Shown here one piece after another: positions 5,958-64,000 of a DNA stretch of 64,000 nt (within the stretch, counting starts at the first letter, position 1; each line of letters starts with the position of its first letter). Made by a program: the position numbers and the translations under genes. The notes under the pieces are model-generated. The model saw only the letters and a program-made list of their open reading frames with translations, was not told the DNA's origin and did not search any database. Origin of the DNA: Gemmatimonas sp. Its GTDB lineage: Bacteria; Gemmatimonadota; Gemmatimonadetes; Gemmatimonadales; Gemmatimonadaceae. Where the stretch lies: contig JANNVQ010000007.1 in assembly GCA_031414535.1 (NCBI GenBank), positions 23,317 through 87,316 on the forward strand. Direction: 5' to 3'.

Positions 5958-7120
5958 GTTTTACGGAGTTGGTTCGCCAGCTCACGGCCGGCGACCGTTC
6001 AGATGCCCTGTGTCTCTTGGCCTTGGCTCAGGCGGCGGACGACCAAGGCTCGGCCGCGTTCCATGACGTCATGGTTGCTTACCGCAACGACTACCTGCAC
6101 ACCCTCGAGATGGAGGGGCGCGACCTAGCCGCCGAGTCGGGCAGGTTGAGCTTGGACGAGGTGCGCCGCCATTTGGCGGCCGTGGTGCTTCCGCGCTTGG
6201 TGGCCACAGGGGCGATTGAGGCGCCTGGCGGAACCGAAGGGCGCATCACGCTCGCGGGAGATGCCTCGATTGCCTTTCGCAGCGACCGCGCGGCGTTTCA
6301 GGCATCGCTCCAGGAAACCGGCGAGCACGCCAGCGCCCACGTCCGAAAGGCGCCACCCGTCGTTGGCGGTTCGGTGCTCTCGTCGGCTGGCCTCGTGAAG
6401 ACCTACAAGAAGCGCAACGTGGTCAGCAATGTTTCGCTCGAGCTTCATCAGGGCGAAATTGTCGGCCTGCTTGGCCCCAATGGCGCGGGCAAAACCACAA
6501 CGTTTTATATGATGGCGGGTCTCATTCCGCCGGACCAAGGACAGATCCTCCTCGACGGCGTCGACATCACGCGCATGCCGATGTTCCAGCGGGCGCGTCG
6601 TGGCATTGGCTACCTCTCGCAGGAGCCCTCCATTTTTCGCAAGCTCTCGGTAGAGGAGAACATCCTCGCCATTTTGGAGACCTTGCCCATTCCGAGGCAG
6701 GAGCGCGAACAGCGCCTCGAGAACTTGTTGGACGAACTCAAGATTAAGCATTTGCGCCTGAGCAAGGCCTTTGCGCTCTCCGGCGGCGAGCGTCGGCGCC
6801 TCGAGATCACGCGCGCGCTGGTGACTCAGCCGAAGTTCATCATGCTCGACGAACCCTTCGCCGGCGTTGACCCCATTGCCGTCAACGACATTCAGGGCAT
6901 CGTCGCCTCGCTGCGTGAGCGCGGGATTGGCGTGCTCATCTCTGACCATAATGTCGAGCAGACCCTCGACATCGTGGACCGTGCATACATTATGTTCGAG
7001 GGGCAGGTGAAGGTCGCGGGTCCGGTGCGCGAACTCATCTTTGACGACACGGTGTCTACCGTGTACTTCGGCCCGACGCTCACGGCGCGTCTGCGCGCCC
7101 GCTTCACGGATGGCGTGTGA
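5954..7120 (+). CDS. lptB: LPS export ABC ATPase LptB with ~140-aa N-terminal extension
   Basis: GLLGPNGAGKTTTFYM, YLSQEPSIFRKLSVEEN, LSGGERRRLEI, LDEPFAGVDP; SD GGGAGG at 5943-5948 before the GTG. Confidence 0.93.
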   Translation: MSFTELVRQLTAGDRSDALCLLALAQAADDQGSAAFHDVMVAYRNDYLHTLEMEGRDLAAESGRLSLDEVRRHLAAVVLPRLVATGAIEAPGGTEGRITLAGDASIAFRSDRAAFQASLQETGEHASAHVRKAPPVVGGSVLSSAGLVKTYKKRNVVSNVSLELHQGEIVGLLGPNGAGKTTTFYMMAGLIPPDQGQILLDGVDITRMPMFQRARRGIGYLSQEPSIFRKLSVEENILAILETLPIPRQEREQRLENLLDELKIKHLRLSKAFALSGGERRRLEITRALVTQPKFIMLDEPFAGVDPIAVNDIQGIVASLRERGIGVLISDHNVEQTLDIVDRAYIMFEGQVKVAGPVRELIFDDTVSTVYFGPTLTARLRARFTDGV

Positions 7121-58420: not shown

Positions 58421-59534
<1,114 letters not shown>

Positions 59535-59548
59535 TCGGAGTGCCTGGG

Positions 59549-59594
59549 AAAGAAATAGCGCGAGCCGTGTGCAGCGTGGCGCACACGGCTCGCG
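59549..59594 (-). terminator. 14-bp perfect hairpin followed by CTATTTCTTT upstream of prfB
   Basis: CGCGAGCCGTGTGC-N8-GCACACGGCTCGCG (59559-59594), then an interrupted U-rich run on the minus strand. Confidence 0.5.
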
Positions 59595-59707: not shown

Positions 59708-61105
59708 CTAGAACATCTTCTGGCCACCGGCCAGCAAGTCGTTCAACGCCTCTTGAAAATGCTGCGTGGAATCCGCGAACTCCTTGCCAATCTGGTCCAC
59801 GTACTCCTCGTAGCTCTTCTTGATTTCTTCCTTGAACAGCGCCTTCAGTGTTCCATCCCGGAGGCCCTGCTCTCGCTTGTCCGGCAAGTACGCGATCATG
59901 TCGGAGACCAACGCGCGTGCCAATCGACGCGCCTTCAGATTCGGGTCGTTCGACAGGAAAGGATTCACCGGCTTGCGTGTCGGGGACCCCGGCGCCGGGG
60001 TCCCCGCCGCCGACGTCGCCGCCGCAGACTTCATGGGCTGGGAAACGCGCGGCGAAGACAGCGGGGACGCAGTCGCTGGCGACAGCGGAGTCAGCGGCCG
60101 CAAGGGCGTGAGCGGTGTCCCCTGCGAGGAGGGCCGAGCCAATGGAGCAGACGGCTTCGCCATCGGCGGTGCCTGAGGCGGCGCCGGCGGGGGCATCATC
60201 GGAGGAGCCACTACCGGAGGAGCCATCACCGGAGGAGCCACTACCGGAGGAGCCATCACCGGAGGAGCCACCATAGGACGCGGCTGTGCCGGCGGCTTTG
60301 GCGGCGCTGGAGCGGCGGCACCCGGCACCGGAGGGGTCATGAGCGGCGGACGCGCCTGCGTAGTACGCGGCGGCACCCCAGGTACCAGCGGACGAGGCGC
60401 TACCGGCGGAATCGCGGCGCCAGGAATCGGGGGCGTCAGCTTTGCGACGGACGAGCGCTGCGGGGGCTCGGGGCGCGGCAGAACGGGTGCTGGCGTGGCC
60501 GAAGCTGCAGGAGTCGCAGCCGTAGGCGCACTGGGCGCGGCTGCCGCTGCAGGCCTTGCAGGCGGCAGCGCAGGCGCCATCGCAGGCCGCGGGGCTGCAG
60601 GTGTCGGGAAACTGGGACCCCGCGGTGCGGCCGGAGCGGCGGGTGGCGTTGCAGCTGGAGGCATCAGAGGAGCGGCGACCGCTGGCGGCATGCGCACCGG
60701 AGAAGGCGCGGGCGCCCTTTCCACTTGTGGTGTAGGCGGAGTGACAGGCCGCGCGACGATCGGTGTCGGCGCAGCCACTGGGGCCAAGGGGGCCAGTGGG
60801 GCAGAAACCGTTGCCTGTGGCGCCGCCGGCTCCCTCGGAGACTCAAAAGCCTCCGGTGCGGCCTCGGCCTCGGACTCGAGTACCGCTCGGTCCGAGTTCG
60901 AAGACCATCCCGAGGTGGCGGCCGCTGGCACCGCGCTGCCTGCGGCTGCCATCGCCGCGACTCCGCCGCCTGCCGCTGCACCCACCGGGGCGCCGATACG
61001 GATGACCGCCCCGCAGACGGAGCAGCGCGCACGCACGCCTGCCGCCGGCACTTTGGACGGGTCCACCCGAAACACCGACTGGCACTCTCCGCACGTCACG
61101 TTCAC
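59708..61105 (-). CDS. MJ0042-type zinc-ribbon protein with long Pro/Ala linker and helical (RomX-like) C-terminal domain
   Basis: MNVTCGECQSVFRVD...RARCSVCG; ~340-aa low-complexity linker; C-terminal KARRLARALVSD...FQEALNDLL. Confidence 0.85.
   Translation of the reverse strand: MNVTCGECQSVFRVDPSKVPAAGVRARCSVCGAVIRIGAPVGAAAGGGVAAMAAAGSAVPAAATSGWSSNSDRAVLESEAEAAPEAFESPREPAAPQATVSAPLAPLAPVAAPTPIVARPVTPPTPQVERAPAPSPVRMPPAVAAPLMPPAATPPAAPAAPRGPSFPTPAAPRPAMAPALPPARPAAAAAPSAPTAATPAASATPAPVLPRPEPPQRSSVAKLTPPIPGAAIPPVAPRPLVPGVPPRTTQARPPLMTPPVPGAAAPAPPKPPAQPRPMVAPPVMAPPVVAPPVMAPPVVAPPMMPPPAPPQAPPMAKPSAPLARPSSQGTPLTPLRPLTPLSPATASPLSSPRVSQPMKSAAATSAAGTPAPGSPTRKPVNPFLSNDPNLKARRLARALVSDMIAYLPDKREQGLRDGTLKALFKEEIKKSYEEYVDQIGKEFADSTQHFQEALNDLLAGGQKMF
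60201..60270 (-). repeat. In-frame 15-bp tandem repeat encoding (V/M)APP(V/M) x5
   Basis: GGAGGAGCCACTACC and GGAGGAGCCATCACC alternate on the + strand. Confidence 0.9.
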
Positions 61106-62094
61106 TGCGTGTCCCCCACGTTGGCCGATCGCTGATTGCCCGCCGGCGTTTCGCCCGCCGGACCGTCACCACGACGATCCACCGAGAACACCGAGCCGAA
61201 CCTGGTCTTCGCGTAGCTCTTCATTTCCGTCGCCAATTCACTCACCTGCCCAGCGTGCGTGAAGATGCGACGCTCATTGGTCACCACACCAATCGAAAGC
61301 GTCATCATCGGAACCTTATGCAGCTGCCCGCGCCTATCCTTTCCAAAATAATAACCCGCGCGCCGATCCTGTTCGGAGTACTGATATGGAATCAGCGTAT
61401 CAAACACTTCCACAATCGTCCCGCACGCCGCGTTCACGTGCTCCACGGGAATGATGGAGATGAAGTCGTCGCCACCGATGTGCCCCACGAAGCCGACCTC
61501 GCCGCAGGTACCCTTCACAATGTCGTGCAGGATGCGCGATAGGATGCGGATGACGCGATCGCCGTCGTAGTAGCTGTAGCGATCGTTGTATTCTTTGAAG
61601 TGATCGAGGTCGGCATAACACACGGCGAAGGCGGAGCCAGCCTCAATGCGCCGTGTCATCTCCAGTTCAATCTCAATCGTTCCGGGCAAGCGCGTGGACG
61701 GATGCACGAATGTGTCACGGTCACTGCGACGCAGCATCGCATCCAATCGCAGGGTGGCCTCGTGATGACCAATGCCCTCGCGAATCACTTCGTCGGCACC
61801 GGCGTCAAACGCTGCGGCAAACGACGCGTCGTCCTCGCGGGTGGCCAAAAGCACCGGCACGATGCCCGTGAACGAATCTTGCTTCAGACGTCGGCACATC
61901 TTGATGGCGGCGACGGGATGCTGGCGCGCGTCAACGAGCACCAGTCGCGGGCGACCGCGAAGTGCCACCTGCATCACCTCATCCGGATCCGAAAATCCGC
62001 GTGTAGGGACGCTACGACTGTCCAGCCACGCCCGAATTGAATCGGGAAGCGGCTGGCCATCGGGAGTGAAGACTAGGGCAGCGCCTTGAGACAC
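61102..62094 (-). CDS. Receiver-like + GGDEF diguanylate cyclase
   Basis: REC-like N-terminus (PRLVLVD, VPVLL, AGADEVI); STRLPG, DLDHFKEYNDRY...GD, GHIGGDDF, TLSIGV. Confidence 0.9.
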   Translation of the reverse strand: MSQGAALVFTPDGQPLPDSIRAWLDSRSVPTRGFSDPDEVMQVALRGRPRLVLVDARQHPVAAIKMCRRLKQDSFTGIVPVLLATREDDASFAAAFDAGADEVIREGIGHHEATLRLDAMLRRSDRDTFVHPSTRLPGTIEIELEMTRRIEAGSAFAVCYADLDHFKEYNDRYSYYDGDRVIRILSRILHDIVKGTCGEVGFVGHIGGDDFISIIPVEHVNAACGTIVEVFDTLIPYQYSEQDRRAGYYFGKDRRGQLHKVPMMTLSIGVVTNERRIFTHAGQVSELATEMKSYAKTRFGSVFSVDRRGDGPAGETPAGNQRSANVGDTQ

Positions 62095-62120
62095 GCGGTC
62101 AGTTTGGGGGTGGACTCGGA

Positions 62121-62149
62121 AACGTAGACCGACTGGCCAGTGGTGTCAA
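62121..62149 (-). promoter_or_regulatory. Sigma70-type promoter upstream of the GGDEF gene
   Basis: Minus strand TTGACA-N17-TACGTT. Confidence 0.7.
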
Positions 62150-62193: not shown

Positions 62194-62388
62194 TCACGCC
62201 GGTCCGAGCGCCGTGGATGTCAGGGCACGTTCGACGAGCAGTACGGGGATTCCCTGCTCCACCGGATAGGCCAGGCCACAGGACGCGCAGCGCAACACGG
62301 GGGCTTGATTTGTGCCGGCATCGTCCAAGGCCCCGCGGCACCGGGGACAGGCCAATAGGACGCGAATCTCCGAGGGGATTCCCGTCAT
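62194..62388 (-). CDS. Trm112/YcaR-family small protein
   Basis: LLACPRCRGAL...LRCASCGLAYPVEQGIPVLLVERA. Confidence 0.9.
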   Translation of the reverse strand: MTGIPSEIRVLLACPRCRGALDDAGTNQAPVLRCASCGLAYPVEQGIPVLLVERALTSTALGPA

Positions 62389-63358: not shown

Positions 63359-63474
63359 GCCGGCGACGGCCTACTCTCCCGCGACCTCTCGGTCGGAGTA
63401 CCATCGGCGCTGTAGGGCTTAACGATCGTGTTCGGGATGGGAACGAGTGTGGCCCCTACGCTCTAGTCGCCAGC
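63359..63474 (-). rRNA. rrf: 5S rRNA
   Basis: Minus strand GCTGGCGAC...CCCATCCCGAAC...GTTAAG...CGCCGATGGTAC...GGGAGAGTAGG...GTCGCCGGC with paired termini. Confidence 0.96.
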
Positions 63475-63597
63475 GAAGTGGAGACAACGGAGGTGATGGT
63501 AGTGTTCGTGTATTGGCGAATCGCATGATTGTTAGATCGTGCGAAGCTCTGCGGTTGTATTCCTTCCCCAGTACTCTCTTGCGAGAAATATGGGGAG

Positions 63598-64000
<403 letters not shown>

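Follow-up and report, generated by a model that had tools for sequence, protein, structure and literature searches.

Known systems closest to the locus

In Myxococcus xanthus, the protein RomX acts with RomR on the small GTPase MglA, whose GTPase-activating protein (GAP) is MglB. Residues R11, R14, and D19 of RomX are reported to be needed for MglA binding or exchange activity, and its Leu-Arg pair and last Trp to bind the receiver (REC) domain of RomR (bioRxiv 10.1101/2024.02.20.581209). The role of RomX, exchange factor or effector, is disputed between papers: RomRX has been described as an effector that binds only MglA-GTP and not as a factor for guanine nucleotide exchange (GEF) (bioRxiv 10.1101/2024.10.31.621274; listed as Nat Commun 2026), and the structure preprint allows the effector reading too (bioRxiv 10.1101/2024.02.20.581209). 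At issue are the action of RomX without RomR and the role of MglAB in the many bacteria that have no RomR. Here, we describe a protein of 465 amino acids (aa) encoded in a 64,000-nucleotide (nt) stretch of Gemmatimonas sp. (GenBank assembly GCA_031414535.1, contig JANNVQ010000007.1, positions 23,317 to 87,316; the whole stretch is called the window), which joins an N-terminal zinc ribbon through a long linker to a C-terminal RomX-family domain. We propose, with a probability of roughly 0.6, that this protein is a RomR-independent adaptor that binds MglA-GTP, with its zinc ribbon and tether replacing the anchoring by RomR.

Several other described proteins share parts of this arrangement. The zinc ribbon of GltJ is reported to have two alternative ligands, the linker of GltJ itself and the MglB C-terminal helix, and to raise GAP efficiency fourfold (PMC11135422), and that of ZitP to require Trp35 for PopZ binding (PMC5182065). 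Proteins with a zinc finger, a REC domain, and a RomX fold have also been reported and linked to GltJ and MglB (bioRxiv 10.1101/2024.02.20.581209). An earlier note, made by a model from the letters of the window, had given the RomX, RomR, and GltJ literature correctly in outline, and a Bdellovibrio link between RomR/MglA and the GGDEF protein CdgA only in part: CdgA is reported to bind RomR and a tetratricopeptide repeat (TPR) protein, but as a degenerate receptor that does not bind MglA (PMC3983030). The term "GEF-like" that it applied to the C-terminal domain does not agree with the description of RomRX as an MglA-GTP effector (bioRxiv 10.1101/2024.10.31.621274).

With respect to the phylum, group-1 MglA has been noted in Gemmatimonadetes (PMC4316618), and the range of RomR is reported to be narrower (PMC3441718). 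The S1 Table of PMC9481161 (2022) lists MglA, MglB, and RomX (GAU_1577), and neither RomR nor RomY, for Gemmatimonas aurantiaca, so the occurrence outside myxobacteria, which the earlier note suggested, was already in print. The family assignment itself is not new; the new elements are the architecture without a REC domain, the operon, and the pattern of loss. The literature examined held no account of the REC-less architecture or of its GGDDF operon in Gemmatimonadota; the 2019 Nature Microbiology RomX paper lay outside this scope, and Supplementary Table S2 of the preprint (Foldseek hits) may list Gemmatimonadota proteins.

A RomX-family domain with intact MglA-facing residues

The 465-aa protein belongs to the RomX domain family. 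Its helical domain (residues 388-458) is modeled by AlphaFold2 with predicted local distance difference test (pLDDT) values above 90, and a sequence search of the PDB with the end domain returned M. xanthus RomX (PDB 8ZNA; E 6.9e-8), on which the end-domain model superimposes with a Z score of 11.4 and a root mean square deviation of 2.0 over 77 aligned residues, the next helical hit reaching Z 3.5. Foldseek with the whole 465-aa model also placed 8ZNA at rank 1 (E 2.2e-3). Identity to M. xanthus RomX is 31% over 75 aa, and, when M. xanthus RomX was used as the query, this gene was the sole match in the genome (E 5.9e-9). Pfam and NCBIfam contain no model for the RomX domain. The helical-domain motif quoted in the earlier note is present in the sequence, and the resemblance to RomX that it had pointed out is borne out by the 8ZNA matches and by the Foldseek check. 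Among 988 clusters retrieved by a representative search at E 0.001, the best 150 of 988 were close relatives, and the ESM Atlas returned unnamed clusters only (two from Gemmatimonadota and an Acidobacteriota lead at 0.87).

The residues that face the partners of RomX have had different fates. R394, R397, and D402 correspond to R11, R14, and D19 of RomX and are invariant in 134 aligned relatives. Among 256 fetched proteins, both the zinc ribbon and the RomX domain were recognizable in 186, and in these full-length relatives the helix-3 Leu-Arg pair is replaced by Ala-Gly (150 of 186), while a terminal Phe, placed five residues earlier than the Trp of RomX, is found in 180. Therefore, the face toward MglA is retained and the face toward RomR altered.

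The domain forms the end of a two-gene unit on the minus strand, of which the second gene (59708-61105, GTG start) encodes the 465-aa protein. The unit comprises the following features:

62121..62149 (-): predicted sigma-70-like promoter of the two-gene unit, TTGACA-N17-TACGTT; from the sequence, with the motif recurring before orthologues
61102..62094 (-): protein of 330 aa with a GTG start, pseudo-receiver (about aa 1-125) plus GGDEF domain of GGDDF type; from Pfam/NCBIfam and a residue table of 16 linked orthologues
61102..61105 (-): GTGA stop/start overlap of 4 bp, predicted translational coupling; from the sequence
60986..61105 (-): MJ0042-type zinc ribbon (aa 1-40) of the ZitP/GltJ class, with Ile35 as in GltJ/AgmX; from PF13717, TIGR02098, PDB 2NB9, and PDB 7ZOK
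59981..60985 (-): Pro/Ala-rich disordered linker (aa 41-375); from composition and the AlphaFold2 model
59708..59980 (-): RomX-family three-helix domain (aa 376-465), ending in the conserved Phe; from sequence and structure matches
59559..59594 (-): intrinsic-terminator-like hairpin between the unit and prfB; 15 pairs plus a T run

Zinc ribbon and linker

The first 36 residues are matched by PF13717 (E 3.4e-12) and TIGR02098 (E 3.7e-9), and the nearest solved relatives are the zinc ribbons of GltJ and ZitP (PDB 7ZOK and 2NB9; E 0.0023 and 0.0013, respectively), which confirms the MJ0042-type ribbon described in the earlier note and places it in the GltJ/ZitP class. Position 35 is Ile in 151 of the 186 relatives, as in AgmX/GltJ. 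The long Pro/Ala linker described there is equally real: it spans 335 aa (aa 41-375), consists of 29% Pro and 25% Ala, and is modeled by AlphaFold2 at low confidence (block means of pLDDT 39-63); in relatives, its length ranges from 80 to 387 aa. No membrane helix was seen in the sequence or the model of the 465-aa protein, although no dedicated transmembrane predictor was run. The C-terminal helix to which the zinc ribbon of GltJ binds is conserved in the MglB of this genome, and, by analogy, MglB is a reasonable first candidate for the ligand of the ribbon.

A short acidic-aromatic motif, chosen after looking at the relatives (P0001-P0256), is located 9-23 residues past the zinc ribbon in 111 of the 186 relatives (in a more diverse set, 27 of 87) versus about 4 in other linker windows; it is not at the corresponding place in the protein of the window. 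The motif is reminiscent of the C-terminal helix of MglB and might act as a self-inhibiting ligand.

MglA, MglB, and RomR in this genome

The genome carries a group-1 mglB-mglA pair after dnaX-ybaB-recR (contig C54 in our numbering; L007 5548-6225 for MglA and 6237-6722), so that the mglA and mglB sought at the suggestion of the earlier note are both present and of Myxococcus type. The recR-linked MglA is 74% and MglB 44% identical to the M. xanthus proteins, and this MglA keeps R53, Q82, and the modeled RomX-facing residues E108/E111/E115. Near its C terminus it has a ~30-residue insertion that neither M. xanthus MglA nor the other aligned families of the class share. A second mglA lies in a chemosensory cluster on contig C8, with R/Q/E at these positions, that is, one of the three RomX-facing acids; two MglA matches are found in most genomes of the order. 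Beside the second mglA, this cluster (L008; G000:C8:54000-68000) has genes that, as read from translations, are cheA/cheC/cheR/cheD/cheB-like, together with three roadblock-type genes and genes for TPR proteins, for two DUF4388 proteins, and for a protein with a pair of DnaA-type ATPase domains. Elsewhere (L009 5689-6440, G000:C53), a gene for a single-domain receiver comes after an orphan roadblock gene; the two might encode an MglC-like protein and another REC partner for the RomX domain, respectively.

RomR was not found. Its C-terminal region (RomR-C) gave no match in 61 genomes of the phylum, this one included, when the same query matched three of four control genomes from other phyla, and the best REC matches to RomR in this genome reach 30-38% only. 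The entry for RomR is likewise blank for Gemmatimonas aurantiaca in the S1 Table of PMC9481161. The protein is not a member of a RomR/RomX complex.

Distribution across the phylum

Named homologues assign the genome of the window to Gemmatimonadota. In a survey of 151 Gemmatimonadota genomes that were at least 90% complete, the RomX domain was matched in 115, MglA in 119, MglB in 110, and the orthologue of the upstream REC-GGDDF protein in 116. Domain and MglA occurred together in 114 genomes, neither was found in 31, the domain alone in one (G103), and MglA alone in five; all but one of the 115 positive genomes had a single family match. In family f7, the identical 6 of 16 genomes carry the domain and MglA. 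A cross-phylum profile matched none of 36 negative genomes and found four of four positive controls. Two of the MglA-only genomes (G040 and G026) have contig breaks at the locus. In G085, the gene stops just short of the RomX domain and neighbors a degenerate MglA, and neither mglB nor a GGDDF gene was found in this genome; the truncated gene encodes a 152-aa zinc ribbon and linker (L217 3155-3613).

The GGDDF gene lies directly upstream in 99 of the 107 genomes that have both genes, the other 8 being split at contig ends, so the gene pair that the earlier note described is conserved in relatives. Outside these, one gene may persist without the other. Adaptor and mglA are kept in G087 and five genomes of genus g57, where neither cyclase nor mglB was found; G101 keeps the cyclase at this site, with neither RomX gene nor mglA found; G112 has cyclase and adaptor without an mglB match; and in six genomes, from two distant families, the cyclase is encoded at another site, its receiver being canonical in all five that were aligned. 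Nine of the ten MglA-positive genomes without an mglB match are also without a GGDDF orthologue, a joint loss that may reflect function or a general loss of signaling genes. From this pattern of gene loss, the adaptor tracks MglA more closely than it tracks the cyclase. The three outcomes that the earlier note had named as speaking against its proposal were no match to RomX, no mglA/mglB in the genome, and no conservation of the pair; the match is significant, both genes are present, and the pair is conserved.

In genus g57 (L031-L034, L201), MglA is without the arginine finger R53, the RomX gene persists with a very short linker, and an unrelated open reading frame (ORF) of ~105 aa with a hydrophobic N terminus stands in place of mglB.

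A proposed RomR-independent adaptor for MglA-GTP

We favor the adaptor reading because of the fold and family of the domain, its intact MglA-facing residues, its lost RomR-facing residues, the lack of a RomR match, and the co-retention with recR-linked mglA. In the mechanism that we propose, helix 1 of the C-terminal domain would bind GTP-loaded MglA as an effector or stabilizer and not as a classical exchange factor, and the partner would be the recR-linked MglA and not the one encoded in the chemosensory cluster. The zinc ribbon on its long, flexible tether may supply the anchoring that RomR gives in Myxococcus, possibly by binding an acidic amphipathic helix, for which the C-terminal helix of MglB is the first candidate. 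The output could be spatial control of type IV pili or of another polar machine. For the gene of the pseudo-receiver GGDDF protein, we predict co-transcription and translational coupling, and the protein is probably part of the same regulatory program.

Several observations weigh against this reading. MglA binding by this protein is a prediction, and a complex prediction for MglA (with GTP and Mg) and the RomX domain, which scored 0.74 versus 0.77 for an unrelated-protein control, counts neither for nor against it. Because the surveyed genomes are related, their counts cannot be taken as independent events. In G103, which has the domain, the sole MglA found is a diverged one of the second type; in G071 and G131, the locus is intact but contains no RomX gene, mglA is diverged, and mglB gave no match. 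In a tree of RomX-like domains (described below), the 20 Gemmatimonadota rows group in a clade of their own (100/100), which has a long branch and lies outside the stand-alone RomX clade (95/85), so that orthology to M. xanthus RomX does not follow from this tree. As for the zinc ribbon, ribbons of this class bind other partners such as PopZ, proteins combining this ribbon with a GYF domain (ZnR-GYF) outside Myxococcales are described as uncorrelated with mglAB in the GltJ paper (PMC11135422), and the ribbon is kept, in a more diverged form, in 7 genomes without an mglB match. At least there it must therefore have another ligand, and "GAP-binding", as the earlier note called this domain, is an extrapolation. 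The output is not identified by pilT, since this gene is too widespread: 46 of 50 genomes gave a match, irrespective of the presence of the module, and none was found in G057, although this genome has the module. The genome under study has five genes of the pilT family above the cut-off, and a search for flagellin found none.

This protein offers a naturally RomR-free RomX from a soil phylum of which some members are in culture, and natural deletions of the cyclase, of mglB, of the RomX domain, and of mglA are available among the sampled genomes.

The upstream pseudo-receiver GGDDF protein

In the first protein of the unit, a REC domain (PF00072) is matched at E 7e-4, below the cut-off, and a GGDEF domain (PF00990) at E 2.8e-9. 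The "REC-GGDEF cyclase" of the earlier note is thus right as to both domains, but the receiver is degenerate and the signature motif is GGDDF rather than GG(D/E)EF. GGDDF, preceded by His, is found in all 16 linked orthologues. In the receivers of the same orthologues, the Asp is kept in 15 of 16, the Lys and the first acid in none, and the acidic pair is lost, whereas all residues are present in the canonical receivers of five of five unlinked relatives from genomes without RomX or MglA. A receiver without the acidic pair and Lys is probably not switched by phosphorylation, as far as its residues tell.

The GGDEF domain itself is better preserved. The metal-binding Asp, the Lys, the Asn, and the guanine-binding Asp (D162, K167, N170, and D179) are intact in 16 of 16 linked orthologues, and the RxxD inhibitory site (I-site) is absent from the residue table of these proteins. 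The base-specificity position is Asp in all 16 and Ser in the Geomonas match; the Ser that marks Hypr GGDEF domains, which synthesize cyclic GMP-AMP (cGAMP), is hence not seen here, and the Asp predicts cyclic di-GMP (c-di-GMP) and not cGAMP. The best M. xanthus match (32%) is the C terminus of a large hybrid kinase, and the Geomonas match reaches 38%. Inferred from size and position, the M. xanthus match is probably TmoK, which is reported neither to act as a cyclase nor to bind c-di-GMP, and for which a subtle defect in pilus motility is described (PMC4686200); the M. xanthus match is more degenerate than the protein studied here. Among GGDDF enzymes, GSU1937 is reported to be weakly active and PA3258 inactive (PMC8835794). 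Since one GGDDF enzyme is reported to be active, the motif alone is no proof of inactivity, and we regard the upstream gene as cyclase-like and a candidate c-di-GMP source. This genome has nine GGDEF matches, and the subfamily of the upstream GGDEF domain is found in many architectures elsewhere.

No genuine fusion of the two genes was accepted among 17 longer relatives listed, of which 8 were read, which is weak evidence of absence. One candidate joining REC-GGDDF and zinc ribbon in frame was rejected because it then leaves the reading frame, and four others because they look like frameshifted assemblies.

Transcription unit and surroundings

Both ORFs of the two-gene unit lie where the earlier note placed them, with the 4-bp overlap (GTGA), and so does its promoter. 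On the minus strand, the order is era, a Trm112-like gene, the promoter, the REC-GGDEF gene, the zinc ribbon-RomX gene, the terminator-like hairpin, prfB, lysS, and lolE, the last three named from reading their translations. The pattern TTGACA-N16-18-TAnnnT occurs once in the 64-kb window, at 62149-62121, against 0.33 expected per window in mononucleotide shuffles; the promoter is absent from the output of a consensus scan because its -10 element matches the consensus at 3 of 6 positions. A TTGAC-N-TAnnnT pattern stands upstream of the orthologous gene in 12 of 16 loci, versus 174 of 8000 random 190-nt windows from the same loci. At 15 of 15 orthologous junctions read, the gap between the two genes is -4 to +43 nt, and 8 overlap. 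Terminator-like sites are common in shuffles too (mean 3.2). A TTG-rich text before the zinc-ribbon gene of the cyclase-less g57 loci was rejected as a promoter, being by appearance a start codon with a ribosome site.

The Trm112-like zinc-finger gene (window 62197-62376, minus strand; PF03966) overlaps the end of era. Within prfB, GGAGG followed by CTT TGA C (window 59459-59473, minus strand) is presumably the +1 frameshift site. The stretch at about 63360-64000 (minus strand) resembles 5S rRNA and the end of 23S rRNA by eye.

RomX-like domains in other phyla

A motif scan of species genomes gave at least 120 loci, of which 109 were read; the motif favors forms from outside Gemmatimonadota. 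Among the matches listed, stand-alone RomX proteins of 86-91 aa ending in Trp occur in Myxococcota, Desulfuromonadia, Nitrospirota, and Deferribacterota, and 11 of 12 scanned RomX-family proteins of other phyla carry a REC domain in cis. Zinc ribbon and RomX-like domain share one chain in at least 17 cases, among 80 flanked loci from other phyla. Where neighbors were scanned, six of eight upstream genes encode CheW or a methyl-accepting chemotaxis protein (MCP) and seven of nine downstream genes HEAT repeats. Such zinc ribbon-REC-RomX regulators between a cheW/MCP gene and a HEAT-repeat gene were seen in Desulfuromonadia, Myxococcota, and Nitrospirota (L050, L066, L075, L076, L088, L100, L101, L122, and others), and Geomonas carries both this form and a stand-alone RomX. 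The literature examined seems to contain no study of a chemosensory link to MglA that would run through a second RomX paralogue. The tree mentioned above holds 88 domains and 87 columns, leaving out one frameshifted row, duplicates, and 40 short-flank loci; its root was not tested and its bootstrap values are unsettled, and it is compatible with derivation of the Gemmatimonadota protein from fused regulators or with a separate fusion event.

Alternative explanations

The pairing of the two genes can be read without any functional link, the cyclase-like gene being a mere neighbor in a housekeeping block (era ... prfB-lysS-lolE) whose order is kept by inertia. This concerns the pairing only and is compatible with the RomX reading; we consider it possible, if somewhat doubtful. 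The genes era, prfB, lysS, and lolE are conserved around the pair as well as the pair itself, each gene can stand alone at the site (G087 and g57 versus G101), the GGDEF subfamily turns up in many architectures, and the losses of mglB and cyclase may be a general loss of signaling genes. On the other hand, the pair has a dedicated, conserved promoter before it, overlaps or nearly abuts at all 15 junctions, and has a terminator-like site behind it, and degeneration of the receiver accompanies linkage. A much closer coupling would be a sharpened form of the hub proposed in the earlier note, in which helix 3 and the terminal Phe of the RomX domain serve as the docking site for the pseudo-receiver, in the manner of the RomR receiver, the zinc ribbon recruits MglB, and the MglA cycle places or switches c-di-GMP synthesis. 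Adjacency in 99 of 107 genomes with the other 8 at contig ends, the common promoter and gene overlap, receivers degenerate in 16 of 16 linked orthologues and canonical in 5 of 5 unlinked relatives, receivers in cis elsewhere (11 of 12 scanned), the absence of both mglB match and GGDDF orthologue in 9 of 10 genomes, the intact catalytic D, K, N, and D, and one active GGDDF enzyme all point this way. Yet the docking site is itself changed (Ala-Gly for Leu-Arg in 150 of 186 relatives, with a shorter tail in place of the Trp), six genomes in which the GGDDF gene is missing still conserve the C-terminal tail, the pseudo-receiver enzyme persists in G101 although neither RomX nor MglA was found there, no genuine fusion emerged from the 17 longer relatives listed (8 read), and the probable TmoK and PA3258 are inactive. 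We hold this full hub to be unlikely, and distinctly so the boldest form of the idea: an MglA switch rewired without RomR, in which one soluble chain would hold both MglA-GTP and its GAP MglB across a self-inhibiting tether, the dead receiver of the partner would take the seat of RomR, and a Ras-like GTPase would position or gate a c-di-GMP synthase. Were the cyclase physically coupled, a Ras-like GTPase of bacteria would be tied directly to the synthesis of a second messenger.

A different origin and client would follow if the protein were a REC-less descendant of the zinc ribbon-REC-RomX chemosensory regulators, serving the che cluster through the second MglA or a non-MglA partner and being no polarity switch. 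The at least 17 fused chains among 80 flanked loci, their scanned CheW or MCP (6 of 8) and HEAT-repeat (7 of 9) neighbors, the position of the Gemmatimonadota domain outside the stand-alone RomX clade, the che cluster of this genome with its second mglA and three roadblock-type genes, and the retention of the domain in G103 with a second-type MglA only are consistent with it. We find it improbable all the same: in G087 and the five g57 genomes, all of which retain the domain, MglA has one match per genome, and in all six this is the recR-linked gene, the second MglA is without two of the three modeled RomX-facing acids, and the gene never adjoins che genes in the ~20 loci of the phylum that were read.

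Comparison with known systems

The upstream protein shares its GGDDF motif with GSU1937 (active, Hypr type), TmoK (MXAN4445, inactive), and PA3258 (inactive), and differs from these three in its N-terminal pseudo-receiver. Unlike the Hypr-type GSU1937, it has Asp and not Ser at the specificity position, and, unlike the M. xanthus match (probable TmoK), it keeps an intact GG. As in the MglA-RomR-TPR-CdgA hub of Bdellovibrio, an MglA module stands beside a GGDEF-domain protein; Bdellovibrio has RomR and no RomX listed, the reverse of the window genome, and its MglA without MglB is resembled by the g57 lineage.

GAU_1577 of Gemmatimonas aurantiaca is probably an orthologue of the adaptor, an identity inferred from the single match per genome in 114 of 115 genomes and from a named Gemmatimonas protein (P0274) in the family; the published table gives its locus tag only, with no architecture, operon, or function. 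The zinc finger-REC-RomX regulators (such as A0A2N6E6P0 of Desulfuromonas) have the same N-terminal zinc ribbon and C-terminal RomX-like domain, but with a receiver in cis and in cheW/MCP-HEAT-cheR operons, whereas the window protein has no REC in its chain, an era ... prfB context, and a pseudo-receiver GGDDF gene upstream. GltJ (AgmX; PDB 7ZOK) and ZitP (PDB 2NB9) share with it the class of zinc ribbon followed by a disordered linker; both are membrane proteins, while the window protein has neither a membrane segment nor a GYF domain, and, unlike in these two, its predicted MglA-binding element is a folded RomX domain. With M. xanthus RomX (MXAN_3350, PDB 8ZNA), the partner of RomR and MglA-GTP, it shares the three-helix fold, the helix-1 residues R11/R14/D19, and the co-occurrence with group-1 mglBA; unlike that protein, it is without the Leu-Arg/Trp interface for RomR, in a genome where no RomR was found, and is fused through a 335-aa linker to a zinc ribbon.

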